Source: Patescibacteria group bacterium (GTDB lineage Bacteria > Patescibacteriota > Patescibacteriia > UBA10025 > JAHIVO01). Taken from it: a stretch of 64,000 nucleotides of DNA. The notes under the pieces were generated by a model. That model was not told where the DNA came from, ran no database searches, and saw only the letters and a program-made list of their open reading frames with translations. Location: contig JBAZKE010000001.1 of the NCBI GenBank assembly GCA_041650915.1, forward strand, positions 43,694 through 107,693, in the 5' to 3' direction. Position 1 is the stretch's first letter, and each line of letters begins with the position of its first letter. Shown piece by piece: positions 21,083 through 45,200 of this stretch. Made by a program: the position numbers and the translations under genes.

Positions 21083-21114
21083 GGCATAGCCACTACTTCA
21101 GCAGCAATGGAGCA

Positions 21115-21150
21115 CGTCCGCCAGGTTTACCAGGCGGACGTTTTTTATTT
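21115..21150 (+). terminator. rho-independent terminator after plsX (CGTCCGCC-loop-GGCGGACG + TTTTTTATTT)
   Basis: 8-bp GC-rich stem at 21115-21122 / 21133-21140 with a 10-nt loop and an immediately following T-run. Confidence 0.6.
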
Positions 21151-21152
21151 AC

Positions 21153-21181
21153 TAGACAAGGGTACCATAATGTGATATAAT
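21153..21181 (+). promoter_or_regulatory. candidate promoter of the giant gene: TAGACA-17-TGaTATAAT (extended -10)
   Basis: Perfect -10 TATAAT at 21176-21181 preceded by TGa, with a -35-like TAGACA at 21153-21158. Followed by a 66-nt GT-rich leader containing hairpin GTTAGG/CCTAAC (21202-21224). Confidence 0.45.
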
Positions 21182-21247
21182 ACCTTTGTTAAGTTTGGTA
21201 AGTTAGGTTTGGTTTTTGCCTAACGTAAGCGCAGATAGCTAATTACC

Positions 21248-24200
21248 GTGGCGCTTTCAAAGCCATTCAAGAGAGCGGGTCAGTTCCTCGGGGGGAATAA
21301 GAATAAACAGGGAATTGACTTTAATGCACTGCCGGAGCTCCTCACCTTGGATCAGGTGAGTGAGATTCTTGGTGTCCATCCCAATACGCTCCGCAACTGG
21401 GATCGTTCCGGCAAGTTTGCCGCGCTCCGTGTCGGCCCGCGAAAAGACCGCCGCTACGAGAAAGAGGCTGTCTATAGGATGCACCTGGAGATGAAACCAG
21501 CGGTCCATGCAGCAGATCGGGAGGTCGATGGGCGCAAACCGGAGCCATCAGACAATAAGTACGTCATCCATCCCGGATTCTCGTGGAACAAGTTGCGGCT
21601 CTACTTCATGAGCCGCCGCTTTTCGATATTCGTATATTCGGTAGGGCTCGTCGCTTTCACCTTCGTGGTGATGCAGGTGACTTTTTTTGCGTACGTTTTC
21701 TTAGTCCGCGCCGAAGAGAAGCCTCCGCTCGTCGCCCGGCTCGCCCCATCGGCGGTGACCGGCTGGCAGGGTGCGGAAAAAGCGAAGACAATCGATGCAC
21801 TGGGCACGGCGCCGCTTGATGATTTCAGCATCTACAATTCAGCAGTTTTTTATAATGGTTCTGAGCCGATTGTTGTCGAGGAAGAGGAAGCCGCGGGCAC
21901 TGCCGAACCAGCGCAAGAGGCACCTGCCGAACCTGCGGTCGTGACGCCGCAGGACACCGAGCCCGAACCTGAAGAGCAAGCTCCTACGGAAGAGCCGCAA
22001 GCTCCTGCGGATGTTCCCGCAGAGGAGGCGGAAGAGCCGGTTGATGCATCCGCTATGCCTGCCGAAGAAGGCGAGGCGCCTGCTGTTGAGGAAGGGCTGC
22101 CTGCCGAAGCTGGCGTTGACGGGGGAGCGGCCACAGATGCCGCTGTTCCTGCAACGGAGGAGGCGGTGACCGATGAATCCGACGCGACGGTCGTGAAGGG
22201 CATGGTACTCGGCGAAGAGACGGATGCTGCAGACGAGCCGCTGTCGGAGCAGAATCCGGTGCTCGAGGCTCGGTCATTCGCGGTACCGGAAGCTATTCCC
22301 GCTGGCACGCAGATCAGTGATGCGCGGCTCCTGCTGTCTTTTGCCGCGGATACGTATCCGGACAATGAAGATGTGATTACCTTTTCCTACTCAGTGGACG
22401 GGAGCAGCTGGACCGTGCTCGATTCGCAGGGGCTCATTTCGGATATGAGTAACGGTACGCACGAGGGTTACTGGTCCTTCAGCATCCCCGAACTCCATGT
22501 CATCGATGAAATTGCAGATCTGATTGTACGGGTGGAATACCACGCAGTCGCACCGGTTGAAATGAGCACCGCGTACCTGGACGGCATTGAGCTCGACCTG
22601 ACGCTCGAGGAACCCGATGCGGTTGCCGCGGAGATTATCGAGAGCGTTGAGATAGAAAATGATGTGCTCGATACAGGCGAGGATCCCACGATCAACGTCC
22701 ATATCGAAGAAGAGTCGCCCCTCTCTTTCCTCGGCGCGTCATCACGGCAGCGTACGGTGAAAGACGTCCGGCTGCAGGATCCGAACGGGCGGGAGATTGA
22801 AGCGGTATACACGATTGCCGATGAACAGCAGGGCAGCGTAAAGACGGCAGCGTACACTTTTGATACGGGGGCATTTTCCAAGCCGGGCAAGTATACCGTT
22901 ACCTTGGAGGTTGAACAAAACGGTACGGTCGAGGAGGTTGAACAGGATTTCACCTGGGGCGTTTTGGCCATTAATCCCGATTACGCCATACAGAAGCTCG
23001 GGCAGGAAACGCAGTTTTCCATCGGCGTTCTGGACGATTCAGGCGATATCGTGTGCGACGCGGAAGTCACGCTGGAAATAGTAGATCCCGCCGGCCATGC
23101 CGTTACCCAGTCGACCGTTGACGGCAGGATTACCGTGAGTGACAGCTGCCTGACCAAAGGCGTGTACCAAGGCCCGGATTATTATTCGACCTACACGCCG
23201 CAGATGCCGGGCACGTACCAGCTGCACCTTACCGCAACGCACTACAACGGCACCCGCACCCTGGACAGCGAGTTTGCGGTCGAGGCGAATCCGCGCTTTA
23301 CCGTAAAGCGCACCGGGCCGACCCGCATCTTCCCGTACGTGTACCAGCCGATGCTTCTGGAAGTAACGGCATATGAAGATTTTACCGGCGAGATAACGGA
23401 GATCGTGCCGGGCGTATTTGAAATTGAGGTGCACAATGACGGCGCGATCCGGCCGTTTGACCAGGGAGGGCATATCGACCACCAGATCGTTTGGAAAGCT
23501 TCGTTGAAGGCCGGAGAATCAGCCACGTTCGGGTATTCGTTCAAAACGCCGGAAGAAAGCCCGGCACTGTATATGGCTGGTCCGGCGGCTGTGGGTACCG
23601 TGTGGGACGAAGGCCGGCAGTGGCAGATGGCGATTGACGCGACGTATGTATATCTGCTTTCATCATCAAACAGCGCTCCGGCCGGCTGGTCGTACGTGGA
23701 CACGTACAACAGCAAGTATGTCCGGGGAGCGTCTAGCTTCAGCGGAACGGGCGGCGGCGCTGCAACCCATACGCATACATACAGCGAATCAGTAACTGAT
23801 TCGAGCGTCAATACGGCTGGAATTGTATGCTCACGGCGATGTTTAAGCGTAGCGGGTTTGGGCCATACCCATACGTCAACCGGCAGCACGATAGGGCCTG
23901 AAAACAATGATCCGGCGCATTATACGTACCGGCTCTGGAAGTACGATACAGCTGACGCAACGCCCATGACGATCCCCCAGAATGCGTTTATCTTTTGGAA
24001 AGATAATAGCGCGGATCCATCATCGCCGTGGACCCGTTTTTCCAGCGGCGATGACCGCATGGTCAAGCTTGCGGATAGCCACACCACGGGCGGTTCGACT
24101 ACCCATAAGCATACCATCACCTGGGGCAGCCTCAATGCGACTACGGGCACAAATATTGAAGGTATTCTTGGTGACATATACACCATGACGTCGGCAACTC

Positions 24201-27200
24201 ATACGCATACAGCGCCAACATCGTCATATACGTCTGAAGAGACATTGCTTCCCGAGTATGTGACGCTCGATATTTGGCAGCAGCCGGACGCAACACCGCA
24301 GGCGATCGTGACCGGCACGGTTGCCATGTTTGACGGCACCTTGCCGACCGGGTGGACGGCCATCTCAAATGGTAGCCCGTACCAGAACCGGCTTGTCCGC
24401 GGGTCAACCACTGCGGGATCCCAGGCAGGCAGCGCGACTCATGGTCATGACGATACCGAAGGCACGACTGGCGGGGCAAGTGCACAAGTGAAGCCTGGGG
24501 AAGGTCTTGACGTGCTGACCGCGGCAGAAAACCATACGCATGGTATTCGGTTAGCTGATTTTAGCAGCGGAGACCAAACGCCGCCGTACGTTGACTTTGT
24601 GCTGGCGGAATGCACAACGTGCGCAATAACGACGATTACAGCAGGCGGGATCGCGTACCAGGAGAACGAGTCAACGCCGATCGACGGCACGTCAGACAAT
24701 AAAACCATCACCCTGCTGGTCAACGGTGCAAATACGGCATGCGGCGGCGGAGCGTGCACGGATACGATCGACGATGACACCGGAGCCTGGTCAATCAGCA
24801 ACATCACGTCATCGAGCGGAGATATTATCACCGTATACCTTGATGATGAGACTGAGGAGGCAACGACTGTATTTGTATCGGACGATACGACTCAGAGCAA
24901 CGTTGATCTGTACCAGAATGCGGTAGTAGTTCGGCACGACACGGGCGCTTCGATTACCAATGCGAACTTGTTAACCGGCGACGGCGGGGATGATGACATC
25001 AAATATAGCGTTACCGGCGGGGCACTGTCGGTGGATACCGGATTTGAGCTGCACGTGTGGGCGGGCGATACGTATGATCCAGGCGGCGCGGTGACGACGC
25101 AGGGAACCGGCGGAGACGTGCATGTTGACGATAATGCCACTATGTATATTGATACGATTGATTCGCGGATTACCAACAATATCATGATCGATTCGGGTGC
25201 AGCACTGACCGTACAGGTAAATTCGCAAGTTGATGGCGGCGCTGCCGGCGGCGTTACAGTGGCAGGCACCCTGAATGCATCGGGCGGTACGTTTACGGTC
25301 GGTGACGGCACGGACGAGGTTGTATACGTGGATAGCGGTACGGTGAACGTGGATGGCGGCATCCTGACTATTAAGGATGATTTGTATAATAATTCGGCAG
25401 GCGGCACTGAAGATATCAATATCTCGAGCGGCACGGTGAATGTGGGCGACGATTTCCGGGTCGAGAGCACGGCGGACGTTGACGTGACCGGCGGCACGGT
25501 GAACGTGACCGGCATGCTGGATGTCAATGGAGGTACGTTCGACACGTCTGGTTCATCCGACGTAAACGTGACTGAAATACTGGACCAGGATGGCGGTACG
25601 GTGACGTTTGGCGGCACGTCGACCGTTGATTTTGGGGGAGTTGCTAATGCCGTTAATGACGGAGCCCTTAACCAGACCGGCGGTACGGTGACGTTCGGCA
25701 ACAGTACTGATGAGGATTTGTACGCAAATGCCGGTGCCACAATCACGCTTTCCGGCGGTACGACCGAGATCAAAGATGATTTTTTCCTACCGTCCGTAAC
25801 CGGTTCGGCAACCGTGAGCAATACAGTGAATATGACGGCAGGTTCAAATGAAACCATTGACCTGGACGGCGGCACCCTGACCGTCTATGAAGGAGCTGAT
25901 ATTAATTGTGATTACCGGCTGGATGTGCGCGCCGCAAGCATCGTTGACCTGAACGGCGGCAGCCTGGATACCGGGAATTACTGGCTTATTTACGATGGCA
26001 CGCTCAATCTGGACGGCGGGGACCATAATATCGGCACGTCTGGGTACCTGTATTTTTTACCGAACGCGACGAGCATCACGTTTAACCAGACGGGCGGGCA
26101 AATCACCACCTATCGGCTCTTTGTGGGCAACGGAGCCGGAACCATGTATACCCCGACCGTAACGGGGGGCACGATCAATATCGGGACAGCAGCAGGAACA
26201 AAGGATATTTATTTTACCGAGGCAGGGGATTATAAGTTTTATAACGTCACGATCGAGGAAAATGCCGTTTTCAATACGAGTTCAACTAATTCGCTAAAAC
26301 TCGCCGGATCGTTCACGATCAATAACGGCAAGACGTTTGGCGCAAACGCAGAGGCGATCCAGATCGAGGGCGATAATGCCGGGTCCCCGACCGGCGGGTT
26401 CATCAACGAGGGCACGTTTACGTACGGAACGAGCACCGTCACCATGCTGAACGGCGAGATAAAAGGAAGCCCTGATGTTATGCTCACTTGGAGCAGCTTT
26501 TATAACCTGAATATCGGCGACGCTACCACGTCGAATACGATTGACGTGGGCGGCTCCAATAACTTTTGGGTCCAGAACGCATTTGCCATTACTTCCGGCG
26601 ATGCGCTGTCGATCGGTTCGGGCCTGTATGCCGGGCATTCCGGGCCGACATTTACGCTCGATGGCACGGTGAGCGGTGACGGCACGCTCGCATTTGATTC
26701 CGCCTCCCCCGGTCCGGGCACCGGCGGCACACTGAGCGCAAACGTCCGGTATGATACCACTGCGGGCAATATTGCGGCCGCAACATTTGACGCCCGCACG
26801 TACGGCGGCGATGTTGATATATACCTGGGTGAACTGGTCATCGGTGCAAAGAGCGCTATCGCCGGAGCGGGCACGCTCGCGATAGGCGGCGGCCTGACTC
26901 TTACCGATGAAAGCGCGGAGGGGTTAAGCTTGGACATGAACACGAACGATCCGACGACAACGGTCGCGGGCAGCGTTACGGTCTGTGCAACGTGCACGCT
27001 CAGCGCGCCGAGTACGGTGAGTGATACCGCATTCATCGTCAATGGTAGCTGGGCCAATAGCGGCACGTTTACCGCAAACGGAGGCCAGGTTACGCTCGAC
27101 GGATCCGCTACCCAGACGCTGTCCGGTACCATGTCCGGAGCGTCTTCGTTTGCAAACCTGAAAATCCGGGACGCTTCAGCGCGCACGGTTGATTTCGAGG

Positions 27201-30200
27201 CGCAGGCAATCACCACCGGCACCTACACTATCGAAAATGACACCAATGCTACCACGGTGCAGTATGAGAATGTCGCCGACAGCGCGCCATTCACCTTTGC
27301 GGACATATCCTGGGGCCAGGCTGGCACCAACGGCATCACGTTTGCAGGAGAATCAGGCTCGTCCGAATGGCACCTGAAAGTGACTGACGCATCGCAGGCA
27401 GTGAGCTACGTGTCCGTATCATGGTCAGATGCGAGCGTTACCGACGGCCTGGAAATAGCCGCGTCGGACGGCACCAATACGGACGGCAACAACAATACCA
27501 ACTGGGATTTCGGGTTTACCATATCCGGCACGTCAACCAGCTTTGGCACGGTAAAAGTCGCGGTTAATACTACCGTACAGACCGACAGCGCCGTCATATC
27601 GGGCGGCACATGGCAGATCACGGCTGATGCGGATCCGATTTCCGGGGATGTTATTACGGCGTACATTGACGGAGTGGACGATAGCCTTGAAGCAGTTGGC
27701 GTAACGAAGTATGACGGCACTGGGACCATCAGCGGCATGGTGCTGAATGGATATGAAGTTTGGTTTGGGAGCACCAGTGATACTCCGAGCTTGACCCTGA
27801 CAGACCTCGAGAACTGGGATTACGACAATGATGAAGACGTATTCTTTTCAGTTGCATCGAGCACGCTTGAGATGAACGGCGATTCAGCCCATTCGCTCAA
27901 CGTACTGCAGATCATGGATAACGCGACGCTCACCTTGAGCACAGGGCAGACACTGAATGTTACCGAACTTTTTGTCAGGAGCGACGTTACGGACGGCCAT
28001 CTGACCATGAGCGGATCGCCCATCATCAATGTAAAAGAATTGTTTAATAATGCGGGCGATTATAACGCTTCCACCGAAACGGTCAACATGGCAAATACCA
28101 TGATCGGCTATATTACCGCGGCAGGCGCGTCTGACAGCGATATTTATAACCTCAACATCAGCCCGACGAGCGGCCTATTAACGGTCAGCTTAAACTCGGC
28201 GCTGGTGGTGAATAACGCGCTGACGGTTACTGCCGGCACATTTGCGGTTGACGAAAACCTGAACGTGAACGGTGCAGAAAATGCGTTAACAGTTTCGGGC
28301 GGTACGCTGAGCCATACTGCCGGCACGCTCACGGTTGGCAATAGCACTAACGAAGATTTGTATATTACGAGCGGTGTAGTAACCACGAGCGGCGGCAACC
28401 TTGTCGTGACGGATGACATCCGCCATGCGGGTGGCACGGTGAATATCAATGACGGGTCCAATGTGGACGTAACAGGCCAGTATACCAATGACCTGGCCGG
28501 CTCGCCGATCCTGAACCTGAATGGCGGCAGCATGGACTGCCAGAGCCACATTCTGCTTGACCGCGGAACCGTAAATCTCAACGGCGGCGTGCACCGGGCA
28601 GGCGTGGCGGTTACGGACGGCATTATCGAGATGAACCGGAACAGCACCAAGAGCGAGCATTTTTATTTCAACATGACGGGCGGCGAGCTGCACGGACGGG
28701 CAATCGTCATATATGACAATAAAACGCTTCACACGGATACGGTGTCAGGCGGCCAGTTGTGGGTCGACAATATTTCGGAAATTACCGCTACCGAGGAATT
28801 TTACCAGTGGAACACGGACAGTCCGACATTCTGGAGTCTGGTGCTGAACGAAGACGACGCGAGGATCAACAGCACGTCGCAGATTACCGACCTCAACGGC
28901 GACCTCATCATCAACAGCAGCATGGGCTTGTACCAGCAGGGCCGGGAAATCAAGGTGGCGGGTAATTGGACGCATAACGGTACCACGTATTCGCACGGCA
29001 ATGGAACTGTCCATATGGATGGAGTTGACAGCACAGGATCCATTAACGGCACTACTGCATCGACATTTTATAACCTGTACCTTGAGGACAATACGAGTTT
29101 ATCCAATGGGAATGTAACGGTCGAGTATGTGTTGCTTTTACTTGGAGGAATTGATTTTTCCATCGGGTCTGGCAGGACGGCAACTGTTACGTCTGCCGGT
29201 GGCATGACGGGCCTGACCGGATCTACGGTGAGCGGCGACGGCACGTTGATATTTCAAGCGCCTACGTTAACCGGGCCGGCCCCTGCCATTGATAGTCTGC
29301 TTCGCATGGATGCGGTTGATACGGACCAGAGCATCGAGAGCGGCCCGACCAGAAATTTCGGAAGTACGGTCGAGTTTTACAACAGCGGCGCGAGCTCGCG
29401 CACGATTACGATCGGCAGCGGCGCTGACCAGACGTTCAATTTTTACGGCGATGCCACGTCCACGGTCACCGGCGGCGGCACGCTCTCGGTCAGGCAGGAT
29501 ACCTATAATCCAATTGTCAATATCGTCGGTGATTTTACGATCGGCGCGAGCAGTACGTACATTGCCTCAGCTACGGGCGCACTCAACCTTAGTGGCAGTT
29601 ACACGAATACCGGCGCTTTTACCCACAGCAGCGGCACGGTGACGCTCAACGGGACAGCGTTGCAAACCTTGAGCGGGACTATGACTGGTGCGAGTTCATT
29701 TAATAGCCTCACTATTACCAATGCATACGGTAGTGTTTCTGGGTGTGATACGCTGTTCTCGCCGGGAGTTTCATTTGGTACATCGGCGACAATCGCCGGG
29801 ACGTATACAATTACGACAGCAGGGGTTAACGTCCGCTACAATTCCGGGTCTACGTATACCGTAAATAATATTAATTGGCAGGGCGGAGCAGGCGATGAAA
29901 TTATTTTCCGCAATTCAAACCTCACGTCGGGTACGTGGCTTCTTGCTGTATCCGGGACGCAGACGAACGTCTCGTATGTCAATGCCGCACGGTCAGACGC
30001 CTCATCGGGAGACGTGATCGACGCTTCGAACGGCACAAATACTGATTGTGATAATAATACCAACTGGGATTTTTACGCGGGGATACTCGTGACCGGCACG
30101 CTCGGGTTTTCTCCGGCAGCCGGCACGGTAAAAGTAGCGGTTGACGGTGACGTGCAGACTGACGGCTATGACGTGACCGGCGGCAGCCCGTGGGAGGTGT

Positions 30201-33200
30201 ACACTGATGCCGAACTTGCCGGGGATGAGACGGTCACCGTATTTATCGACGGCGCGGAGACTGCGGATGAATCCACGGCAATCACCGGGTACGATGGCAG
30301 CGGAGACATTACCGGTATGGTCCTGAACCAGCACGTATTAACGGCCGGCAGCGCTGACAACCATACGCTGGTGGTGGACGATTTCAGTACGTATTGGAAC
30401 ACTGATGATGAAGACGTGATGCACGGCATTTTTCTGGGAATGGAAACCATGACTCTTTATGTTGACAATAGCCAGTATACGGACGAGCGGCTTCATATTG
30501 TAAGCGGCACGACCGTACGCCTTACCAGCAATTCGGGTGATTTGGAAAATTTGAATACTTTTAATATAACGATTGACGGAACCCTGGACATTACCGGAAC
30601 TGCGACTGCTCAGATTGACGTATACGGCAATTGGGACAATAACGGCGCCTTTAATTCGAATACGAGTTATACGATATTTAGGGCAACGAGCGGGTCGTTT
30701 ACGATTGATTCAACGGGCGCCTCAGCATCGGCATTTTATCGGCTGACACTCGGCGGCGTGAGCGGTTCGGCTACGTTTACGCTCGAATCACCCCTGGTGG
30801 TGAACAACAATCTGATGATTAATTATGGCACATTGGACACCAAGTCGGGCGAAAACAACAGCATTACGGTTGGCGGCACTTGGACCAATTATGATACGTT
30901 TACCGCTAATACCGGCTCCGTGACGTTTACCGGTACTGGAAGCATCAATGGCGATCACGACACGACGTTTTATGATCTCACAATCGGCGACGGTACGGAT
31001 GGGACGATGACCGTCAATGGCACGGATGATCCGACCGTTACCCACAATATTGATATTGACGCCGGCGATATACTCTCGATCGGATCAGACAGGACGGTAA
31101 CGTATACCTATGATGCCAATTCATTCACGCTTGACGGCACGATATCCGGAGCCGGCAGGCTGGTCTATAAGAGTTCTGACGCATTTCCAGCGACCGGCAC
31201 GATAAGCACAATTGTGCGGTTTGATGCGACGGACGTTATCTGGCAAAATACCGGTGGACGTACGTATGGTAATACGGTTGAGATTTACCATAATTCTGAC
31301 GCACTGCCCAAACTGATTTATCTTGCGGGCAGCGGCGCTACCGTGATTAATGGGGATTTGTTATTCATGACCGGCGCATCAGCATCGCTGGACATGACCG
31401 TATCCAATACCAATAATTACGATGTGGATATTGCCGGGTCATTGAGCGTTTCAAAAAGCGGCAGCGGCGATATCACCTTTGACGCCGGAACTGCTGCGTA
31501 TACGGTTGGCGATGACGTGAATTTCACCAATGCGGCAGTAACGCTCGAGGCCGGCAGCCTGGTGGAAATGACCGGCGCGGAAGACGGCACCGGTACCCTG
31601 ACGTCAGCCGGGACTACGCTGCAAGACGTCACGCTGTCCGGCGGCACGATCACGCTTGCGGATGCGACCCATACCATCAGCGGTTCGCTTGACATGACCG
31701 GCGCGGCCGTTACTGCCGGCACGTCTACCGTACTGATGAACGGCGCCGTCGCGTCACTATACGGCGGTGGCAATGCGCTGAATAATTTGACGCTGTCTTC
31801 TGATTCGACAACAACCTTGTATTCGGATATTGACATTGACGGGGTGCTTGATATTACCGCCAGTGATACGCTCGACATTTACGTTGGCATTTTTGCTACC
31901 TTAACACACTATGCGGAATTGACGTTTAACGGGACGATCTCAGGTATAGGGGGGTACTTAGTGTACCAGTCCAGTACCCAGTTCCCGGCCGCAGGCGGGA
32001 CATTCGGATCTATGCTGAACGTGCGGTTTGATGCGAACTACGTCAATATGGTGATACCGGGCAGGAACTACGGTACCGGCATATTTGAGTTGTATAATAC
32101 AGGCGCTACTAATAAAACGATCTATCTCGGCACCGGTACCGGGCAAACGTTTAGCCAAACGGAGGAGGTTAACATCGTGCGCACCGGCGCCGGCAGCCTG
32201 CTCGTAGATGCAGATTTCTACGATCCGACGGTTACGTTCGGGTATATGACGATCGGGGCGGGCACCACGTATTTGTCAGCGAACTCGCATACGTTCACCT
32301 GCTTTTACGATTGCGACAACCAGGGGACGTTTACCCACAATGACGGCACGGTTGCTGTCGGCACGAGCGGCATGAATTTAGCGGGTGACTGGACCGGCTC
32401 GAGCGCGCTGTACAATCTTACGACCGATAAAAATCTTGATTTTGACGGAGCGGTGACCGTCGCCAATACGTTCACGATCGATAACGGGAGCAATACGGTT
32501 GACGTGGAGTTCGAGCCCGGTGCTACATATACATTCGCCAATATCGTGTGGGGCCAGGCAGGCACGAATGCGGTAACGATGCACGGTGAAACTTCAAGCG
32601 CCTGGAATTTGAAAGTTACGGATGAATATTCATCACAGCAGGTGAGCTATGTGACGGTCAGCTATTCAAACGCATGCGTGTCGGGCGGGCAAAATATTGA
32701 TGCGACCGACGGCACTAATAATAATAACGGCAATAACAGCTGCTGGGATTTCAGCGATTCAATGGATATTTCAGGGACGGCGGACGGCAACGCGGGCGAG
32801 CTCGTGAAACTTGCTGTAAATGGCGTTCGGACGACCGAAGTGGGAAACATCATTACCGGTGCGCCGAATACATGGACGATTGCGAATGTTGGCACGATCA
32901 ATTCCGGTGATGTAGTAACGGTTTGGATCGAGAATACTATTGGAAACATTTCTGACACGGATGAATCATCGGGCATTACGAAGTATGACGGCAGCGGGGA
33001 CGTTACTGGCATGGCACTCGATACGCACGTACTGACGGTGGGCAGCGCGGACAACCCAAGCTTTGTGCGCGACGACTTTTTGCTGTACTACAATGACGAC
33101 GACGAAGACATCATGCATGGAAAGGATGAAACGCCGGATTGTAAGGATGGCATATGTCCGACTGATCTGAATAGTGACATTGATAACGTGTATTCGGATG

Positions 33201-36200
33201 ATTTGTTCAGGGTATTATCAGGGGCAACGGTTACCTTATCTGCGGATGCGGATGACTATTATGACGTGCTGGATGCCCACGATGTTACCAATGAGGGGAC
33301 GATTGTCACTACCACGACAGGCCTTACCCCGAAACTTCAAATCAGCGGGTCATGGAATAATACCGTGGCAGCGACATTTACATCGAGTTTAGAACAATTT
33401 ACATTTGATTCAAGCAGCGCAGGTGAAACGATTACAACGGGCGGCGATCCCGTGTATAGTTTGTTTTTTATGGGTACTGGATCATGGTCCAACGCCGATG
33501 CGCTGACGGTAAACAACGGCCTGTATGTCCAGAATACGGGCACGTTCAACGTAACGGGCAATGACGTGACGGTAAAAGGCGCTTCCGGCATGCATATATC
33601 CGACGGTACGGTCGCTATCTCGTCCGGGATAGTTACCGTCGGCGATAGCACGGACGAAGACCTTATCCTTGACGGCGGGACGCTCAACGCTTCGGGTGGC
33701 ACGCTGATTGTGCAAGATGATCTCATCACGACCGCCGCAGGGAATGCCGAGGATATCAATGTAACCGGCGGGGTGCTCACGGTCAACGGTTCATTGGACA
33801 TTAATGACGGTACGGTTGATTTCGGGCCGGGCGCATCGGGAGCTATTGATGTTAATGTGAGCGATTGCATGCATCAGACCGCAGGTGCCGTGACGGTGGG
33901 TACGGGAAGCTACGCCGTTGATGTGGATATTGACAATGGTGAATTTACGAGTGCGTGTACTTCTTTAACCCACGGATATGAAATAACCGGCGGTACATTG
34001 ACTATTGACACCAATGCTGATGTTGCTATTACTGACGCATACTATTTCCAGACCGGCGGCACGTTTAATCTGGATGGCGGCAGCATTGCCATGGCCGGGC
34101 CGGCTGGTTACAGCTTTGAGTTCAGCGGCGGCACGTTTAATCTGGATGGCGGCACCGTGGATGCTGATGATGATAAAGATTATTATGTTAATTTGTCTGA
34201 CACGGGCCCTGTCACGTTTAATATGTATAGTGGCGATATTTATACCAGCGCTTTTTACGTACAGAATAACTATACGACCACAACCCTGAATCCCGCATTG
34301 GGAGGCACCATTCATATAAGCGGACCAGAGAGCGGCGGCAGTAAATTTTACCAGTACAGTGATGACAGCCCTCATTTCTATAATCTTTCGATAGAAAAAG
34401 GAATCGTCGGTTACCCCGTATCGTTCCAAAGCGGCGGCCAGAATGAAACTATTTTGGACGGAGATTTTACGATCTTGAATGCTGATGATTACTTTCGTCC
34501 CTGGGGACAAGCCATTGCCATCAAAGGAGATTATACAAATAACGGCACCTGCTATAGCTGTAATAGCTCGACATTTACTTTTGACGGGACTGCTGGCCAG
34601 GCGCTTTCAGGAAATCTCAACGGTACCAGCATGTTGGACGCAGTGATCATAGAAAATTCAGGCGGCACAGTTGATATTGATAACTACCTGCGTGCCAATT
34701 CATTAACAATTGACAATTCCGGCGGTACGGTTGATATCGAGTGGGAATCTGACGCGGACGGCACCAATTACCACGAGTTTGCCGACATCGTATGGGGCCA
34801 GGCAGGAGCTAACGCCATCACATTTACAAAAGAGACAAGCGCGAACAGCCAGTGGTACCTGAAAGTGACGGATACGTCCCAGCAGGTCAGCTACGTGGCG
34901 GTCGCCGATTCAAACGCATGCGTATCCGGCGGCCAGACCATCATGGCAGACGACGGGACCAGTGTTGACAACGATAATAACGATTGCTGGGATTTCGGGC
35001 TGGTGATAATCAGCGGCACCGCGCCATCATACATTGACGGTACGACGATCAAGGTAGCTGTGGATGACGAGGAGCAGGCCGGAAAGACGGGCAGCGTAAC
35101 GAGTGAAGCATGGACAATCGAGGACGTGCTGGTGCCGGACGGCGCAATCGTAACAGTATGGGTGGACGGCGCTGGCGAAATAACAGAATCAACGGCGGTG
35201 ACTGAGCATATCGGCGACGGTGATATCACCGGCATGGTGCTGAACATCAACGTCATTACGCTCGGCAGCACGTCGGATGCCGCGACGCTGACAGCAAACA
35301 ACCTAGCGCAGTGGCAGAATGGCGATAATGAAGATGTCATGCATTCCGTGCTATCCGACATAGGCGGGGGGCAAACGATGTATTCTGATTATAGCAGCGA
35401 GTACACTGATGATACATTTCGGATATTAACTGGCACGACGCTTACAATCAACTCTGGAACTGGCGAACCAACATGGGAGGATGCACTGATCGTTGATAAT
35501 TTAATATTGGATGGATCGCTGACCATGAGCGGCGGATACAGTCCGCAAGTTGAGATATGGGGCGATTGGGACAACAACGGCGATTTCAATACTGACGGGT
35601 CTGAGACCGTACAATTCCGCGCTGCGGAAACGGGGCATACCATTGACCATACTGGCTCGTCTGACAGCGATATTCAACAATTGACGTTTAATGGTTCAGG
35701 CGGCAGGTGGACCGTGCTGCATCCGTCGACCTGGGTTATTAACGGCGATATGACCATGAGTAACGGCATTGCTGATATCGCAACCAATATGCGCGTTGAC
35801 GGCGGGGATGTGACGGGCAATGGCGTTGTCAATGCGTTTGCGGGTTCATTTGAGGTTACGGGTGCCGGTAACTTTGGAGGCGATAGCGCATGGGTATTCA
35901 ATGACCTGACGTTTTCGGGCAATACATACACCACCACCGCTGCGGGATCCGGGTCGATCACGGTCGGAAACGTCCTGACGATCGGTAGCGGGCATGCGCT
36001 GAATGCAGGGTCAAAAACATGGATTCTGTCCGATACGGGTACGCCATTAATCATTGCGGGAACATTGACGCCGTCCAGCTCAACGTTCCGATATACTGGC
36101 GCTGGAGCGACAACGGTGTTTGATGCCTCTTATTACAATCTTGAAGTCATACCAGGAGCTGACAGCGTTACGCACACATTGAGCAGTGATCTTCTTTCCG

Positions 36201-39200
36201 GCGTCATTTCAGTTGCAAATAACATGGTGATCGGCGGTTCGCATCTCGCATGTACGGTTAGCGGCGCATTGTATATGACGAATTTGGACGTCGGCAACAA
36301 CGTGACGATAAATATCGGTACTGCTTTTGTTGCACCTAGCGCGGCAGCGAGCTTTACGGTGGGCGGCAGTTGGTCTAACTCCGACACCTTTACGCACTCG
36401 AGCGGCACGGTTACGTTTGATGCCAATACAACCGGCAAGACCATCCAGTCAAATTCGAACAATTGGAATAATGTCACGTTCAATAACGCGAGCGGCGGGT
36501 GGAGTTTTTCCGACACGACAACGCTGGCTGGCGACCTGACCGTCACCGCAGGCACGCTGTCCGGTACGGTTGATATCGACGTGCAGGGCGGCGACTTGAA
36601 GGGCGACGGGACCGTAACCATGACCGCGGGAACCGTGAATCTTATCAATGACGGCACGATCGGCACGTCGTCCGGCTCAAATGACTGGACGTTCTATGAC
36701 CTGAACCTTGGGCAGACCGGTTGTGCGGCAAACACCACCACTACGGCAAATGCCGGCACCGGCGCTATCATCATCACGAATACCTTTACATATGATGCAT
36801 GCTCGTGCGGCGAAGAGTGCGCACGGTACCACCGCGTACACCCGGGTGCGAGAACGTGGCGCCTGACCGGTACGGGCACGCCGCTGGAATCTGGCATAAT
36901 CAATGTCGGAAATATTGGAACCTCAGTATTCCAGTTCACTGGTACGGGAAGCGCGGTAGCGGTCGCGGGTTATTATTTTTACGACCTCGAACTGATTCCC
37001 GGTTCGGCAACTGATTATAGTTTTAGCGCCCCTACCCTCTACGCGATCGGCCATGATTTGACGATCAATGTGAACGCTGCCGGCAATTTCGATCCCGGAT
37101 CCGCTTACGTTGAGATGGGCGGTGCCACTGGCACCCTGGACGTGAATGGGGCTGATATCCAAGAATTGCGGACTGATCTTGGAACCAGCAACGCGATAAC
37201 GGTAGCGTCTGATGCGATGATTTCATACCGGTTTGTCATTTTTGACGCAGGTGACGTGCTGTCGGTTTCAAGCGGGGCCACGGTTACTCATACCGGTGCG
37301 ACTGCGAATATCCTCGGCGGCACCATATCCGGCGACGGGTTACTTACCTTTACCAATACTTCCACCGGCCCGTCAACCGGCGGCACGGTTACCGCAGACG
37401 TGCGGTTTGACGCGACGGACGGGGATATCACCTCTTCGACGTTTGATACCCGTACGTACGGCGGCGACCTGGAACTGTACAGCGCGCATTCTAGCGGACG
37501 CACCATTACGCCAGCTGCCGGAACGCTTACCGTAGGGGGCAACTTAAACACTACCTCAACAACATCCACGCTTGCAGCTGCGTTTAATACGAATAATCCA
37601 ACGACGCTTATTGGCACGATCGATAATGCGTTAACTGGTGATGTCTCGATTTGCGCAACGTGCACCCTGTCAGCGCCGGGTTCGTTGACGCTGTACGGCG
37701 ATTACCAAAATTCCGGCACCTTTACCCATAACAACGGTACGGTGACGCTCGGTGCGCCCGGCATAGTACAAGCCCAGGCCATGTACGGGGCGATGACCGG
37801 CGCCAGTGCATTCTATAATCTAACCGTGGAAAACGACTTTGAAGCTAACGGTCCTTCATTTGTTAACGATTCTGAGGTTTCCAACACGTATACCATTACG
37901 ACGCCGGCTGTTCTCGTATACTACGATACGGGCACAACCCATACGTACAACAATGTGAACTGGAACGGGCAGGCTGCCGGAAGCCGGATCCGGCTTGTCG
38001 GCACTGATACTTGGAACCTCGAAGTGTCCGGCACCCAGAGCGTGAGCTATGTGGACGCGAGCTATTCAAACGCCTGCGGCGGAGACGTGATCGACGCAGA
38101 CAACGGCACGAATAATAACGGCGGCAATAATAGCTGCTGGGATTTTATCCAGGGCGTTGAAATAGACGGGATTGCGTACGCTGAGAATGAAAGCACGCCG
38201 CTGGGGATCGGACGAGACGTCACCTTACTGGTCAACGGCGAGGAGAATTCGTGCAGTTTTACGCCGTGTACCGGGTCGACGGACGGCGTTGGCGGGTATG
38301 CGATCGCGGATGTTGACGTGCTTTCCGGAGACGTGGTAACCGTGTACTTGGACGACGCTTCAGAAGAAGCGACTATGGTGTACATCAGCAATGGCACCGC
38401 CCAGACGAATATTGATTTATACCAAAACGCGGTTATTGCGCGGGCGGACACCGGATCAATCACCAATGCTAATCTGTCGACCGGCGATGGAGGGGATGAT
38501 GATATAAAGTATGCTGTTGCGGGCAATAATGCCACGTTTGATTCCGGATTTGAACTCCACGTGTGGACGGGCGATACGTACGATCCGGGCGGCCAGATAA
38601 TTACACAAGGCGCGGGTGGCGATCTTCACGTGGATGACAGCGCGCTTGCGTACGTCGACACGGCAAGCTCTGCGATTGCCGGTTCAGTGAGCATTGATAC
38701 CGGCGGTACGGTTACGATGCAGTCCGGCACATGGACTATAGCTGGTGATATGACGGTAACGGGAACGTTCAACGGGACCGGAGATACGGTAGTGAATGGC
38801 GGCGATATGACCGGCACGGGATCAGTCAGTTTAACGGGCGGCAGCGTCACGATGGCTGCTGGGGGCAGCATTGACCTCGGGGGCACTGATACGTTTTCTA
38901 CCCTTATTATCAACAATGGTGATGCCACGACTACCGTAGTAGGCAGCTTGAATATTTCAGGCGGCCTTGAGGTGAGCGCTGGCGATACGCTGGCAAACAG
39001 CACCGGCACCATGAAGCTCAATACAAGCACGGCAACCCTGGCGCTTGCGGGCACCATCAGCGGCTCCGGGACTCTGGTTTACCAGTCGGGAGTTGCGTTC
39101 CCAACCGGCGGCACGCTGTCGATGAACGTGATATTTGACCCCCACCTGACAAGCCAGAGCATGAGTGCGCGAACGTACGGCGGCGACGTGAAGATCAATG

Positions 39201-42200
39201 ATATAGCCGGAAATCCGAGCAGCAACCGTACCGTGACTATGCTTGCCGGTTCATATACGATTATTGGCCAGCTGTGGATGGTTGAGGATACGATGCGAAT
39301 AATCACGCTCGATGCGGCCACGAACGACCCGACCGTGCAAATTAACGGAGACCTGACAGGGAGCGGTACGTCGAGCAATCTCACGCTTCATATGGGCGCT
39401 GGCACATGGACGGTTGGCGATGATGTGAACCTAACACATATGGATGTTGATGTTGAAACTGGGGGAGAGCTTGAGCTGACCGGATCCACTGATTCCATAC
39501 TATCCGCTAGTGCTACCGATATTTTTTACGATTTGACCATGTCCGGAAGCGATGTGGAGTTCGGGCCGGTCGGCGAGGGATGGAGCGCGATCGCGGTTTC
39601 CCATGACCTTAGCTTAACCGGCACGCTTGACGCGAAACTAGCAACAGTGCAGATGGTAGGCGCTGGCGGTTCAATCATCGGCGGAGGCAATACGCTTTAT
39701 AAATTGAAAATTGATCCTGATCCGGACGGCACGGTGACCCTTACCACTTCCGATCTCACGATCAGTAATAGCATATCGACTCCGTTGGAAGTAACTGACA
39801 GCGGCGATATACTATCTATTGAAAGTGGCAGAGTTTTGACCGTCACCGGCGCGACTACGACGGAGATTTCCGGTGTTGGGTCTATTACGGGCGATGGTAC
39901 GCTGCGGTTTGACCACAATTCAGGCGGGCCGGGAACAACCCTTGGAACGCTCGGTGTAGCGGTGCGCTATGACGCGACGTTGGGTGATATCGCGCCGGAA
40001 ACGTTTGACGCGAGGACGTACGGCGGCGATGTCGAAGTATATGCAGGCACAGGCCTGATTGAACGCGTTGTTACGGCGCCATCATCCGGCACGTTTGCGT
40101 TTGAAAAAGCACTGACAACCACCTGCTCTTCGTGTAATTTGCTTACCCTTGGTTTTGACGGCGTCACTGACCCGACGGTTACCATTGATGGGGCATTAAC
40201 GATCGGCGCTACAACCGGATTGTCAGCCCCGTCTAGCGTGGATTTTACACTCAATGGGGGCTATACGAACAGCGGCAGTTTTTACGATAACAGTGGTACT
40301 ATAGTACTTGGCGGTTCAGCAATCCAGACGCTTGATGGCACCATGACCGGCGTGTCTGATTTTAATAACCTGACGATAACAAACGCCTCGGCGGCCGGTA
40401 TCGTATTTGCCAAAGCAGCGACGATTTCCGGCACATACACGATCACGACTGCGGATGTGAAAGTGACCTACCTTGCTGGCGCTGCATATACGGTTACGGA
40501 TATCAATTGGGACGGCCAGGACGCGGGTACCCGCATTGAATTCGTGAGCTCAACGCCGGATACGCAGTGGAATCTCAACGTGTCGGGCACTCAGACGGAT
40601 GTGAGTTACGTTAACGTGACCGATTCAAATGCGTGCGCTGGCGATGAGATCGTTGCAAATAACGGCACAAACTATAATGGAGGCAATAACGACTGCTGGC
40701 TATTCGGTATCCACATTTCGGGCACCTCGAATACAACGGGCACGGTCAAGGCGGCCATCAACACCTCGCTTGAACCGGATTCAGACTTGATCGCAGAAGG
40801 CACCTGGGATATCGAAACGAGCACCGTGCCGGTCGTGAACGATGTTATTACGGTTTTTATCGACGAGGCAGAAGAGTCCGGCGAATCGAGCGCGGTAACG
40901 CGGTACGATGGCAGCGGGAGCCTCACCGGCGTGGTGCTCGATGCAAACGTGCTGTCCATCGGGAGCGACAATTCAATATACGTGCGCCTGGATGACTTTG
41001 TTTACACCCGTTCGCTCGATGAGGATTTGATGTTTGACCTGAGCACGGGAGAGTGCAGTTCGAGGACGCTCACGATTGACGCGGTCGGGCAGTATACTGA
41101 CGAGACGCTCTCGATCCTCGGGGGAAGCCAGCTCTACCTTCTGTCTTACTTCAATGACGGCGGGCCATGCAACCGCTACGATACGGTCAATACCCACAAT
41201 ATTGATATCAGCGGCTATTTGTCCGAAACCGGCGACAGGGAGTCAACCATCAATGTTTCCGGTTCCTGGGCAAACAGCGGCACGTCTACCAGCGGCATCG
41301 GCGGCACGCAGGGAGGGTTTGAATCCGGAAATTCGGTTGTTAACTTTACGGCGCCATCCGGCACCGAGACTATCAATTCCTCTGCCGCGATCAGCGGCGG
41401 CGGGTTGCGGGCATTCGATGATATTGTTTTCAATGACTCCAGCGGCTCGGCGACATATTTGCTGAAGTCCGACCTGGATGCCAATCATGACATTACAATT
41501 ACTGGCGGCACGCTTGATGCCGAGTCAGGCGTTAACCATGATATTTATGTAGGCGGTGTGTGGAACAACGATGATACGTTTGAAGCTAGGTGGGGCAAGG
41601 TGATTTTCGACGGTGCAGGAACGTTTATGCTGTATGCCGGTTCGTCGTGGTTTTATGACCTTGAGTTTAATAATGTTGGCGGTTTATGGGATTTTGATGA
41701 GGATGCAGTCACGGCCGGCAACGACGTCGTGGTCACGGTCGGCATCCTCGAGACCGAAGTGGATATCACTATCAAAGGCGGTGACCTTACCGGCGACGGT
41801 ACTGTGACGTTCAACGGCGGCACGCTTACCATGGAGCAGACTGGCACGATCGGCACTGCCAGCGGCAGCAATAATTGGACACTGTACAATGTCACGTACG
41901 GGCTCGGTGGCCAATGCACGTTGGATTATACGACTACGGCAAACGGCGGCGCTGGCACGATTACCGTCGCCGGGCAGATGCAGGGTTCTGCATGCAGTTG
42001 CGGCGGAGAATGCTTTAAGGTCCATCGGCTTGATCCAGGAGCAAGAACGTGGATATTCAGCGGAACAGGGCTCTCGGGCGCTGCCGATAAAATACCCCTT
42101 GTTGATTCGACATTTATAAATAACGGCGGCACCTCAACAGCCCGCTTTACCGCGACGACCGGCCCTGGCTATGTTGTGCAGGTTAGCGACAATGATTATT

Positions 42201-45200
42201 ACAATTTAGAAATGCTTCCCGCTGAATCCGAAGATTATGAGTGGTCAAGCGATACCGGCATTTATGGGATTTACCACGATCTAACGATCAATTCCAACGC
42301 CGCCGCCAATTTTGACGAAAAGCAGGCAGTTCTCCGGCTTTATGGCACTGACCAGACGATTGATGCCAATGGGGCTGATCTTTACGATGTCGGCACGTGG
42401 ACGGATGGAGTGCAGGCAGTATCCATAGCTTCGGATGTCACTATAACCTCGCGTTTTCTGGAGTTGTATAGCGGCAATACCATAACGATCGCGGATGGAG
42501 CCACCATGACCGTCTCTGGTGCCCAGACAAACATTATTGCAGACGGTGCGGTCCTGACCTCGGTCGGTACTGGCATGCTCCGGTTCCTGCCGGGCACGAC
42601 AGGCCCCGGCACCACAGGCACGCTGAGCGCGAACGTGCGCTATGATGCGACTGATGGTGATATCGCGAGCGGGACGATTGACGCGCGCACGTACGGAAAC
42701 AGGGTTGAGGTTTACTCCGGGAGCAGCTCGGCTGACCGCACCGTGACAATAGCGTCCGGCACGTACACGCTGTCCGGCGCGAGTTCGCACCTGCACCTCC
42801 TTGCAAACGGCGATAATAACGTAACGCTCGCCGGTGCAACGAACAATCCTACCGTTACGATCGGGGGCAATGTCGACTTTGCCGGTACGGGCGGCGGGAG
42901 TGAGATAATCACGTCCGGCACCGGCACGTGGACCGTCTCGGGTAATGTCGATTTCACCGGCGGGACGTATACGGCGACATCCGGCAACACGCTCATCATG
43001 AACGGCACCGGCACGCCTTCGATCACGTCAGCGAGCAATTCATTGTACAATTTCCAGACCAGCGGCACCGGCACGATCACGCCCCAGGATAATTTGACGG
43101 CTGCAAACGACATAACGCTCGGAAACGGCACGACTGTGTCCAGCGCGCATGACATCACGGCCAATGGCGGCGACCTGACTACCACGGGCGGCACCGGCAC
43201 CGGCGTGCTGACCCATACGGCTGGAACCGTTTCGATATCGGGAACGGGCAATGTCGGCGGCAACAGCGCGTGGACCGTCCAGAATCTCACGTTTTCCCAG
43301 GCCGTGTGCGCTGATTATACGACAACAGCGACCGGTACCGGCACCATCACGGTCAATGGCACGCTCCTGACGGATGACTGCACGTCGGGCGAAACCGAGT
43401 ACCACAAGCTCGCCGCTGGGTCAAAGACGTGGATCCTCACCGGCACGACGCCGTTTACCAATGATGGAGGCTTGGACGGCGGCACGTCTCTATTCCGGTT
43501 TACGACTGCCGGGCCGGCTACGATACCGCTCGGCAACGTCGGCGGGTCAACGGGGTACTATACGCTTGAGCTCAAGCCGTCAGGTTCCAGTCCGACCTAT
43601 ACATTCGCGGCTGGCGCTGATTTCAATATCAATAATAACTTAGTTATCGGCGACGGGACAAATAGCGTGACGGTCAGCGGAACCGCTAATAACCCGACGC
43701 TTGATATCGCCGGCAGTGTTTCCTGCACCGCGGGCGCGAGTACCAATACGGTCGCGACAGGGACGGGCACGTGGCATGTCGCTACTAATGCGGATTTGTC
43801 AGAGTGCGATTCGTGGACGGCCACCAGCGGCCATACGCTTGATATGGACGGTGCGGGCCAGATCACGGCAGCAGGCAAGACGCTTTATAATTTTCAGTCA
43901 TCGGGCATGGGTGTCGTCAGTTATTCCGCCATGGACGTGAATGGCACGTTTACCGTTGCAACAGGGAGCAATTTTGAGCAAGCGGATGAAGATAATATCA
44001 ATGTCGCGGGCAATTTTACGATCCAGGCGAGCTCGACCTTCCTTGCGGCGGAAGGCGCGGGCATGCTGATTCTGGACGGTGACCTCACGTTTACCGACAG
44101 CACCGTAGGCCTTCAGGACCTTGGTGATGTGCAGGTCGGCACCTCGCCCGATACGACCAATCTCGCGTCAGACATGAAAGCAAATTCTTTGACTGTTGCA
44201 ACCGGCGATTTCTTCTATACCAATGGGTATGACCTGGATTTGGGCACCGGCGGATTGACGGTCGATGGCACGTTTGACGCGGCTGACGACGTGGAAACGG
44301 ATGAAACGCTCATTACGACGAACGGCGATGTCAGGTTCAGCGCCCCGGCAACGTTCGGGCAGGACCAGTCAACAATCGAGTTCGACGGGTCTTCCGGCAC
44401 GGACGTGCTGTTGACGAGCGCTAAGCCGATTTATAACCTCGTGATTGACGGCGGCGCCAATCTACTTGTTGAGCTTGGCAGTGCGCTTGACGCGGACGGC
44501 TCGATCACCATCAACGTCGGTGAGCTTGATGTCACCGCCGCGCCGTACGCGATAACGCTTGGCGGCAGCTGGATAAACGCAGACACGTTTACGGCGCGCA
44601 CTGGTACCGTTACTATAGATGGCAGCTCGGCGGTTGGCACGTTTGACATCAATTCAACCGGCGCCACTGCCGCGTCATTTTATAACTTGATACTGAATGA
44701 TGCCGGCGGCGGGGATACGTTTGAATTGGAATCCGCGCTGGATGTTGACAATGACCTGACGATCACCGGCGGAACGCTGGATACCAAGAACGGATCAAAT
44801 TGGGGAATTAGTGTTGGTGGCGACTGGACAAACGCTGACATCTTTACGGCTCGTGCAGGCATCGTCACGTTTAACGCAACGGATACCGGCCATACGATCA
44901 ATTCCGGATCATCTCAGTTTTTCTCCGTTGTATTTGATGGTGCCAGCGGCTCGTGGTCGCCATTGACGAACAATATAACCATTACCGGCACCCTGACCAT
45001 GACCAATGGCACGTTTGACACTTCTGCGGGCACTGCCAATGTTACGGTTCGGAGCCACGTACAGTGTGGAGCAACCTGCGGCACCATTAACATGGCGTCA
45101 ACCAACACTTTTACGGTGCAGGCGCTATTTACCGCAACGATCAATTTCGGCACCAATGTTGCGGTTGCGACTGACTGGACTTTTTATAACCTCACGCTCC

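Follow-up and report, generated by a model that had tools for sequence, protein, structure and literature searches.

A giant gene of a Patescibacteria group bacterium encodes a surface protein of 9,711 amino acids (aa) that carries a cytoplasmic helix-turn-helix (HTH) domain at its N terminus. The gene lies on a 64,000-nucleotide stretch of contig JBAZKE010000001.1 (hereafter the window, to which positions refer unless stated otherwise), where it forms a single uninterrupted open reading frame (ORF) at 21248..50383 on the forward strand. The HTH belongs genuinely to the giant gene, is translated and is under selection, and the architecture that results, an HTH joined through one transmembrane (TM) helix to a very large ectodomain, is solid, widespread and unannotated. 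A conserved array of 9-bp repeat units directly follows the promoter of the gene. The co-occurrence of this array with the HTH family, and analogy with known DNA-binding proteins, suggest that the HTH may bind the element and repress its own giant gene, the most likely of the readings considered, to which we assign a probability of roughly 0.45–0.5.

Relatives were collected by scanning one genome per GTDB species with the invariant peptides of the family, and 273 were found. In 14 of these (L004–L017), the tblastn match spanned HTH, linker and TM helix at 49–57% identity. The 14 orthologous loci come from different species, all of them Patescibacteria-type metagenome-assembled genomes with GC contents of 0.35–0.55; for one of them, a Candidatus Kerfeldbacteria bacterium, the chromosome is complete. 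The frame was open to the end of the examined DNA in all 14, which amounts to more than 2,000 codons at loci with 6 kb of sequence, and no stop codon sets a separate small HTH gene apart from the giant part. Alignment of the orthologous proteins with that of the window extends over residues 1–650 or further, and L004 and L009 have the gene order ftsK–rodZ-like–recA–plsX in common with the window. The HTH is the best-conserved segment of all, and the motif is thus far from unconserved; the N-terminal arm and the linker diverge most (Table 1). At the same time, each orthologue differs synonymously from the window at 14–26 of the 50 HTH codons. So many synonymous differences across a conserved HTH indicate that this frame is read and selected. 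A preliminary description of this DNA had weighed two origins for the arrangement: either the giant surface protein truly has a cytoplasmic DNA-binding head, or a small regulator gene has become joined to it by loss of a stop codon. One continuous frame in 14 orthologous loci supports the former, and a recent event of the latter kind is rejected for this locus.

The fusion extends well beyond these orthologues. A HMMER search of 1.84 billion representative proteins returned 998 matches; among the best 150 of them, 34 are at least 500 aa long, and about 28 of those 34 have the HTH at aa ~20–90 and a single TM helix at ~100–160, with lengths of up to 6,677 aa. Genes for HTH-giant proteins of this size were called independently in public databases, which name the products 'helix-turn-helix domain-containing protein' or 'hypothetical protein'. 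A word-indexed protein search yielded just small paralogues or three partial orthologues. The architecture may plausibly go back to an old fusion event that involved a separate small HTH gene, since stand-alone paralogues of 58–100 aa are common and are preceded by a related motif.

Translation from 21248 starts with VALSKPFKRAGQFLGGNKNKQGIDFNALPELLTLDQVSEILGVHPNTLRNWDRSGKFAALRVGPRKDRRYEKEAVYRM, and the first 82 residues read VALSKPFKRAGQFLGGNKNKQGIDFNALPELLTLDQVSEILGVHPNTLRNWDRSGKFAALRVGPRKDRRYEKEAVYRMHLEM. As the preliminary description had noted, the only in-frame start available 5' of the HTH is GTG 21248, not an ATG, and no Shine–Dalgarno (SD) sequence precedes this codon; the next in-frame starts, TTG 21347 and GTG 21356, fall within the HTH and would truncate it. 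An SD was likewise lacking in all 14 orthologous genes, which start with ATG, GTG or TTG 20–35 codons 5' of an LPxLLT motif, three of them with ATG at the place equivalent to GTG 21248; these corresponding starts support GTG 21248 as the start codon. The missing SD is uninformative, because by a simple test only 3 of the 22 long ORFs of the window have one. The SD-less GTG and an SD-like AAAGAGG 11 nucleotides (nt) before ATG 21479 are what would favour an artefact or recent accident, in which a stop loss or assembly error had attached the HTH and the true giant protein started at ATG 21479. The string is indeed present (21461–21467), as the preliminary description had reported. It fails as a start signal, since it comprises codons of the conserved Glu-Lys-Glu that follows the RRY motif, and Met78 (ATG 21479) was found in only two of the 14 orthologues; an internal start at this position was therefore ruled out. 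With the same fusion in 14 species and about 28 more distant clusters, and with the HTH under in-frame purifying selection, an artefact is extremely improbable.

The domain itself was characterised by profile and structure comparison. A search of aa 1–200 against Pfam gave two matches, well above chance: HTH_17 (PF12728) at aa 31–75 (E=4.6e-08; 33.6 bits against a cut-off of 27) and MerR_1 at aa 33–80 (30.2 bits against 21.6); the MerR model PF00376 scored 24.8 bits, under its cut-off of 28.2. This agrees with the excisionase/MerR-type HTH proposed earlier for 21329–21482, which corresponds to aa 28–78 (the peptide then cited is aa 31–78). The AlphaFold2 model, built from ten sequences, shows a confident winged HTH with a predicted local distance difference test (pLDDT) score of 82–92 over aa 28–82. 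Its elements follow the order beta1–alpha1–alpha2 (recognition helix, HPNTLRNW)–wing (RVGPRKDRRY)–alpha3, with a beta strand at 31–33, helices at 34–41 and 45–54, a wing at 60–71 (strand 68–71) and a last helix at 72–82. The nearest PDB entries by sequence are mycobacteriophage Pukovnik Xis (4J2N; E=2e-5) and then Streptomyces BldC (6AMK/6AMA). Foldseek superposed the model on Xis 4J2N with a root-mean-square deviation (r.m.s.d.) of 1.4 Å at 35% identity and on BldC 6AMK/6AMA with TM-scores of 0.75–0.84 and r.m.s.d. values of 1.2–1.7 Å at ~30% identity; further matches were lambda gpNu1, RacA (5I44; TM-score 0.64) and the N-domains of classical MerR proteins. DNA-bound BldC and Xis rank highest among these structures.

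These results define a MerR-like minimal winged HTH that is neither a classical MerR protein, nor a functional excisionase, nor a BldC member by the curated model. Classical MerR proteins have a long coiled-coil dimerisation helix and an effector domain, whereas here a variable linker and then the TM helix come after alpha3 (72–82), with no coiled coil; their operators are palindromes in a -35/-10 spacer of 19–20 bp, whereas the giant gene has a 17-bp spacer and direct phased units. The excisionase label stands for fold and Pfam family but not for function, because the neighbours are rpoB, rpoC, ftsK, recA and plsX and there is no integrase. Excisionases and other recombination directionality factors sit beside an integrase in mobile elements and act at att sites; the HTH described here, although Xis 4J2N/HTH_17 is its closest match in sequence and structure, has core chromosomal neighbours and is fused to a membrane anchor.

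The HTH subfamily is Patescibacteria-wide and is recognised by an invariant recognition helix and basic wing, HPNTLRNW...G..R.G.RKDRRY. Most members are stand-alone proteins of 58–100 aa, and a few consist of HTH and TM helix only (P0001, 119 aa; P0030, 138 aa). Three proteins (P0020, P0024 and P0124; 325–661 aa) contain 4, 8 and 7 tandem HTH copies, and in L035 and L060 the same subfamily is fused N-terminally to HsdM-like methyltransferases of type I restriction-modification systems. No second HTH copy was found elsewhere in the 64-kb window.

The giant protein is almost certainly a type-II membrane protein, with the basic arm and the winged HTH inside, a flexible tether of ~45 residues, one TM helix and ~9,550 residues outside. 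The N-terminal arm is rich in Lys, Arg and Gly in every orthologue. AlphaFold2 gave low confidence for aa 83–112 and, beyond them, a long helix at 113–156 with a pLDDT of 95–98. Residues 124–155 form the only hydrophobic segment of this kind in 9,711 aa. Lys and Arg residues lie before it, the juxtamembrane motif contributing to this positive-inside charge, and Glu-Glu-Lys follows it, which gives an N-in/C-out topology. The ectodomain begins with an acidic spacer, continues with a conserved N-terminal module (aa ~341–800) and then passes into a repetitive body rich in Thr, Gly, Ser, Asp and Asn. The orthologue alignment extends across aa 341–650+ of this part. The conserved module gave a weak Ig/filamin-like signal, including a weak Filamin match at aa 583–662; when the full 9,711 aa were compared with Pfam and NCBIfam, nothing but the HTH and this Filamin match was obtained. 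In one orthologue (L005, protein P0011), a Peptidase_S8 (subtilase) domain follows the conserved module (aa 913–1007; E=1.4e-13). At the equivalent position, the window protein lacks Peptidase_S8, which shows that the orthologues differ in the content of their ectodomains.

At its C terminus, the giant protein shares a 146-aa module (49943–50380) with the product of the next gene, whose C-terminal 146 aa match it at 86% identity. Homologues of this partner gene also lie directly 3' of the giant gene in four more distant loci (clade 2; L105–L108), where they likewise match the giant protein's C terminus. Sharing of this C-terminal module possibly reflects co-assembly or anchoring.

An intrinsic terminator after plsX indicates that the giant gene forms its own transcription unit. 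Its sigma-70-type promoter matches the consensus at 11 of 12 positions and includes the TG of an extended -10; a (T)TGGACA -35 and an extended -10 are common to all 15 clade-1 loci (the window and its orthologues). Between promoter and start codon lies the proposed operator, five 9-bp units of which r3 and r4 are degenerate. In clade 1, the order is TTGTTAAGT-TTG(G/T)TAAGT, followed exactly 27 bp past the second unit by AA(C/T)nT(A/T)AGC. In 11 loci, the stretch from r2 to r5 is free of indels and the columns TTG-TAAGT and CTAA..T.AG are invariant; spacings of 9, 27 and 36 bp prevail between the core motifs of the orthologues. In four loci of one sub-group, r5 reads TTGGTTAGA/G and is an evident direct copy of r2. 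Over the whole distance from the -10 to GTG 21248, these 66 nt are better conserved than the first 27 codons of the gene.

The composite r2–r5 element is unique within the window. A relaxed r2-N18-r5 pattern was present in 13 of 15 clade-1 and three of four clade-2 loci; it strayed once in the 287 kb of these loci and four times in 667 kb of other family loci. The strict pattern, run against 241 million metagenome records, gave 21 matches, five of them in a promoter context, and all three of those with enough downstream sequence precede HTH-giant ORFs. The 16 matches outside a promoter context are probably due to chance, and five of them are copies of one RNA-binding-protein gene start. An unbiased 6-mer count 5' of 66 other family members, mostly small soluble HTH genes, placed TAAGTT, GTTAAG, TTGTTA and TTAAGT among the most enriched words. 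TG[GT]TA[AG]GT reaches a density of 2.65/kb 5' of these 66 genes, compared with 0.25/kb in the remaining intergenic DNA of their loci (P=7e-24); for the orthologues, the two densities are 5.0 and 0.21/kb.

In clade 2, the HTH-TM-giant genes encode 4,380–6,524 aa and are divergent from a LytR_cpsA_psr gene. Their element lies at about 1397–1484 of the respective locus; L105–L107 have the relaxed pattern, and L108 has an r2 copy and a degenerate r5 only. It is located 55–100 bp 5' of a strong proximal sigma-70 promoter (11/12 matches; L106–L108); from this promoter to the start codon, the distance is 16 nt in L106 and L107, which start with ATG, and 52 nt in L108, which starts with TTG. Because the element sits upstream of this promoter, it is not part of the mRNA that starts there. 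In the window, element and promoter come in the opposite order.

A lone copy of the r2 unit, TTGGTAAGTTT, at 380–390 on the reverse strand of the window lies in a convergent intergenic region and is followed by an A-rich stretch, ACAAAAATACAA, which resembles sequence 5' of small HTH paralogues. With no gene downstream in that orientation, it was taken as a chance occurrence rather than a second site. Beside the gene for the HTH+TM protein P0001, 1.2 kb of non-coding DNA (L001, 10360–11560) contains about six units 136–211 nt apart, each with paired AAAGTTAACAT boxes, and a transposase-like HTH gene comes after this repeat region.

The conserved leader might instead act as an RNA, controlling translation or targeting for an SD-less GTG and unrelated to the HTH. 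The clade-1 element is transcribed, always in the sense strand and at a near-constant distance from the start (leader length 66–73 nt in 10 of 15 loci), and none of these genes has an SD. Tests for structure were, however, uniformly null. RNAalifold found 0 consensus pairs in the leader, two hand-drawn helices (21–29/41–49, long-range; 37–42/51–56, a local hairpin) showed no covariation beyond shuffles, and the window leader folds no more stably than shuffled sequence (z = -0.10). Rfam gave no leader match at E<=10 over 20900–21600, and none at gathering thresholds over the whole window. An RNA element would also be hard to reconcile with clade 2, where the element lies upstream of the proximal promoter, and with the cytosolic small paralogues, which carry the motif as well. 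We consider an RNA role very unlikely; an element conserved in primary sequence and in helical phase, but not in pairing, points to a DNA site that a protein binds.

If that protein is the HTH, a simple form of autoregulation can be envisaged. The cytoplasmic HTH would bind the array of 9-bp phased TTG(G/T)TAAGT-type units at its own promoter. Since the array lies 5–50 nt past the -10 of this strong promoter (+5..+50 in the window), binding would block transcription. Each molecule of the costly protein would thus bring with it one membrane-tethered repressor module and limit its own transcription in cis, and in cells only a few hundred nm across, a membrane-held HTH could reach the nucleoid. 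The ectodomain may modulate HTH activity. BldC protomers each bind a 9-bp site, arranged head-to-tail on direct repeats (PMC5859096), and the 9-bp register of the element fits this mode of binding. BldC has the same fold, likewise without a coiled coil or effector domain. However, it is a soluble protein of 68 aa, whereas the present domain is the N terminus of a 9,711-aa membrane protein, and the repeat bound by BldC is AATTnnnnC rather than the TTGKTAAGT to which binding is predicted here.

Several observations weigh against this reading. Both DNA binding and the choice of target are deduced from co-occurrence and analogy, and the scan for further sites in the genome covered 64 kb. The curated BldC model of NCBIfam (HTH_BldC, NF033787) scored 18.8 bits against a cut-off of 77. 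The stand-alone paralogues have mainly 10-bp, not 9-bp, spacing. Their recognition helix is identical to that of the giant protein, and a soluble paralogue could be the true regulator while the tethered copy is otherwise employed. Finally, an element at +5..+50 in clade 1 vs one at about -60..-100 from the proximal promoter in clade 2 does not fit a single simple model of repression.

A different use of the same parts would be a transducer of the ToxR/CadC kind, in which the ectodomain senses contact with a host cell or surface and the HTH, perhaps once released by proteolysis, acts as a switch for other genes; the element at the giant gene's own promoter would then be just one of several targets. 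Patescibacteria are epibionts with large surface proteins, which would suit such a role. The giant protein has the topology of the known membrane-tethered one-component regulators ToxR, TcpP and CadC, with an N-terminal cytoplasmic HTH, a single TM helix and a C-terminal extracytoplasmic part, and these are its closest analogy for a mode of action; the juxtamembrane motif and an [AVIL]-[RQ]-A↓E site (↓ marks the cut) could be processing signals. On the other hand, ToxR, TcpP and CadC combine an OmpR/PhoB-type winged helix with a periplasmic sensor of ~100–250 aa, whereas here a MerR-like/Xis-type winged HTH, with no Trans_reg_C match, is joined to an adhesin-like repetitive ectodomain; the possible signal-peptidase site after the TM helix is a further difference. 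The 9,556-aa ectodomain resembles no known sensor domain, no protease gene was seen near the giant gene, no other composite element occurs in the 64-kb window, and in the metagenome data the promoter-context element was seen at HTH-giant genes only. This leaves a sensory transducer a doubtful alternative to repression of the gene by its own HTH.

The HTH could also act as a tether without a role in transcription, holding the chromosome or the transcribed gene at the membrane in the manner of RacA, so that locus, 29-kb mRNA and translocon are kept together during long co-translational export. RacA of Bacillus subtilis, one of the structural matches, likewise links DNA to the membrane or pole through a MerR-like winged HTH; it is, however, soluble, reaches the membrane via DivIVA and binds many GC-rich sites as a symmetric dimer. 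An element that adjoins the gene in cis and the existence of stand-alone HTH+TM proteins without an ectodomain would suit a tether. A single site per locus, by contrast, makes a weak anchor, as the RacA type needs many dispersed sites and none were seen in the window, and the same motif 5' of soluble paralogues fits ordinary autoregulation better. We regard a tether as unlikely.

The same low standing applies to the proposal that the HTH is a protein-interaction module which, like that of RodZ, links the surface protein to a cytoplasmic partner, the repeat element serving another factor or an alternative-sigma promoter. RodZ likewise has a cytoplasmic HTH, one TM helix and an extracytoplasmic domain, and a RodZ-like HTH_25-TM-ectodomain protein encoded 3 kb upstream offers a precedent for this architecture without DNA binding. 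The position of the element relative to the sigma-70 promoter differs between the clades, as that of a second promoter might. However, the HTH of RodZ is of the Xre type (HTH_25) and has MreB rather than DNA as its ligand; RodZ is also of a different size and has no associated DNA repeat element. In the giant protein, the invariant residues are those of the recognition helix and basic wing, the DNA-contacting parts in BldC and Xis, and the motif co-occurs with the HTH family whether membrane-bound or soluble. The TTGGTA–TAACNT spacing of 20 bp is also too long for a sigma-70-type promoter.

The end of the TM helix carries the motif [AVIL]-[RQ]-A↓[EDG], which is invariant in all 15 clade-1 proteins and is a possible, sequence-based candidate for a signal-peptidase-I site that would separate HTH and TM helix from the ectodomain. 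In the window, it reads V-R-A↓E-E at 21704–21718 (aa 153–157), with a possible cut after Ala155. A cleavable Sec signal has an n-h-c organisation, small residues at -1/-3 and an h-region of ~7–15 residues with a helix breaker. The more distant HTH-giant proteins have this textbook look, with a basic n-region, an h-region of ~13–20 residues and AxA-type sites at the end of the hydrophobic segment (SSSQFVAA↓D, GALARA↓D and APASA↓E), and secreted proteins from neighbouring genes use A-x-A sites. In the clade of the window, unlike in five local signal peptides, the hydrophobic stretch is ~30 residues long and has no Pro or Gly before the site, which argues for a stable anchor. The HTH may stay covalently on the ectodomain or remain as an HTH-TM remnant after a cut at V-R-A↓E.

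If cleavage occurs, the HTH-TM part would be a separate tail-anchored protein like the stand-alone P0001, one for each exported ectodomain. An extension of the repression model would then be a transcription factor built into an export signal, whose remnants bind the promoter array, count exported molecules and shut off the gene. We think this rather unlikely; if true, it would be a secretion-coupled stoichiometric feedback on the costliest gene of the genome. We know of no bacterial precedent for such feedback.

In size, repetitive composition, lack of recognisable domains and extracellular location, the protein resembles the products of giant genes in Omnitrophota and LapA-type adhesins. A survey of the Omnitrophota giant genes (bioRxiv 10.1101/2023.11.21.568195) describes N-terminal C39 or S8 peptidase and SecA-like domains and many TM segments, and mentions an HTH or DNA-binding domain 0 times. 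A literature search on giant proteins, Patescibacteria, Kerfeldbacteria, HTH and excisionase, which was not exhaustive, found no account of the present architecture.

Giant genes make up 2–3% of these tiny, ~1 Mb genomes. A DNA-binding head paired with a specific promoter element provides a concrete hypothesis of how an uncultured symbiont may regulate, or report on, its largest surface structure, and one that is testable in vitro with a short protein fragment and 100 bp of DNA. If true, it would add the MerR-like/BldC-Xis fold to those used by membrane-tethered transcription factors, and Patescibacteria to the bacteria that have such factors. The annotation 'helix-turn-helix domain-containing protein' on proteins of 4,000–9,700 aa is correct and no gene-calling error.

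Table 1. Features of the giant gene and its surroundings in the window; identity is the mean identity of the orthologues to the window residue.
Feature	Position	Strand	Identity	Basis or remark
SAM (S-adenosylmethionine) riboswitch, RF00162	1482-1611	+		65.8 bits (gathering score 44.4); 5' of ORF 1664-2824
RodZ-like gene, 222 aa	17512-18180	+		HTH_25 (73.6 bits) and Glucodextran_B/Ig-like; syntenic in L004, L009
plsX (PF02504)	19976-21082	+		Pfam
plsX intrinsic terminator, hairpin and U-run	21108..21152	+		fold -21.1 kcal/mol, z = -6.0 vs shuffles, then UUUUUUAUUU
Sigma-70-type promoter	21153..21181	+		-35 TAGACA (21153-58), 17-nt spacer, extended -10 TGaTATAAT (21173-81)
Cis element, five 9-bp phased units, proposed HTH operator	21186..21230	+		conserved columns and spacing
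Unit r1, TTGTTAAGT	21186-94	+
Unit r2, TTGGTAAGT	21195-203	+
Units r3, r4				degenerate, between r2 and r5
Unit r5, AACGTAAGC	21222-30	+
GTG start codon of giant gene	21248..21250	+		sole in-frame start 5' of HTH
Basic N-terminal arm (aa 2-27)	21251..21328	+	0.23	weakly conserved; pLDDT <50
Winged HTH, MerR-like without coiled coil (HTH_17; aa 28-82)	21329..21493	+	0.68	Pfam, AlphaFold2, Foldseek
Variable cytoplasmic linker, probably disordered (aa 83-102)	21494..21553	+	0.15	length varies; pLDDT ~50
Conserved juxtamembrane motif KYV(I/L)xPGFS....KL...S(R/K)(R/K)FS (aa 103-123), cytoplasmic	21554..21616	+	0.51
Single TM helix (aa 124-155), N-in/C-out	21617..21712	+	0.63	Kyte-Doolittle 2.23
Extracytoplasmic giant part (aa 156-9711 and stop; 9,556 aa)	21713..50383	+	0.43 (conserved module)	Thr/Gly/Ser/Asp/Asn-rich composition, orthology
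Downstream partner gene, 345 aa	50539..51576	+		cleavable signal peptide ...AAYA↓G; C-terminal domain common with giant protein
Secreted protein with Dockerin_1	53622-54521	+		downstream
Secreted protein with weak Cohesin match	54526-55668	+		downstream
Secreted protein with CarboxypepD_reg	55678-58188	+		downstream

The giant gene is embedded in the chromosomal core, with rpoB, rpoC, ftsK, the RodZ-like gene, recA and plsX upstream, and no integrase, att site or mobile-element context was found around it in the window. The RodZ-like gene encodes a second protein of the window that combines a cytoplasmic HTH with an ectodomain. Downstream, the dockerin- and cohesin-like secreted proteins may belong to a cohesin–dockerin surface assembly tied to the giant protein.

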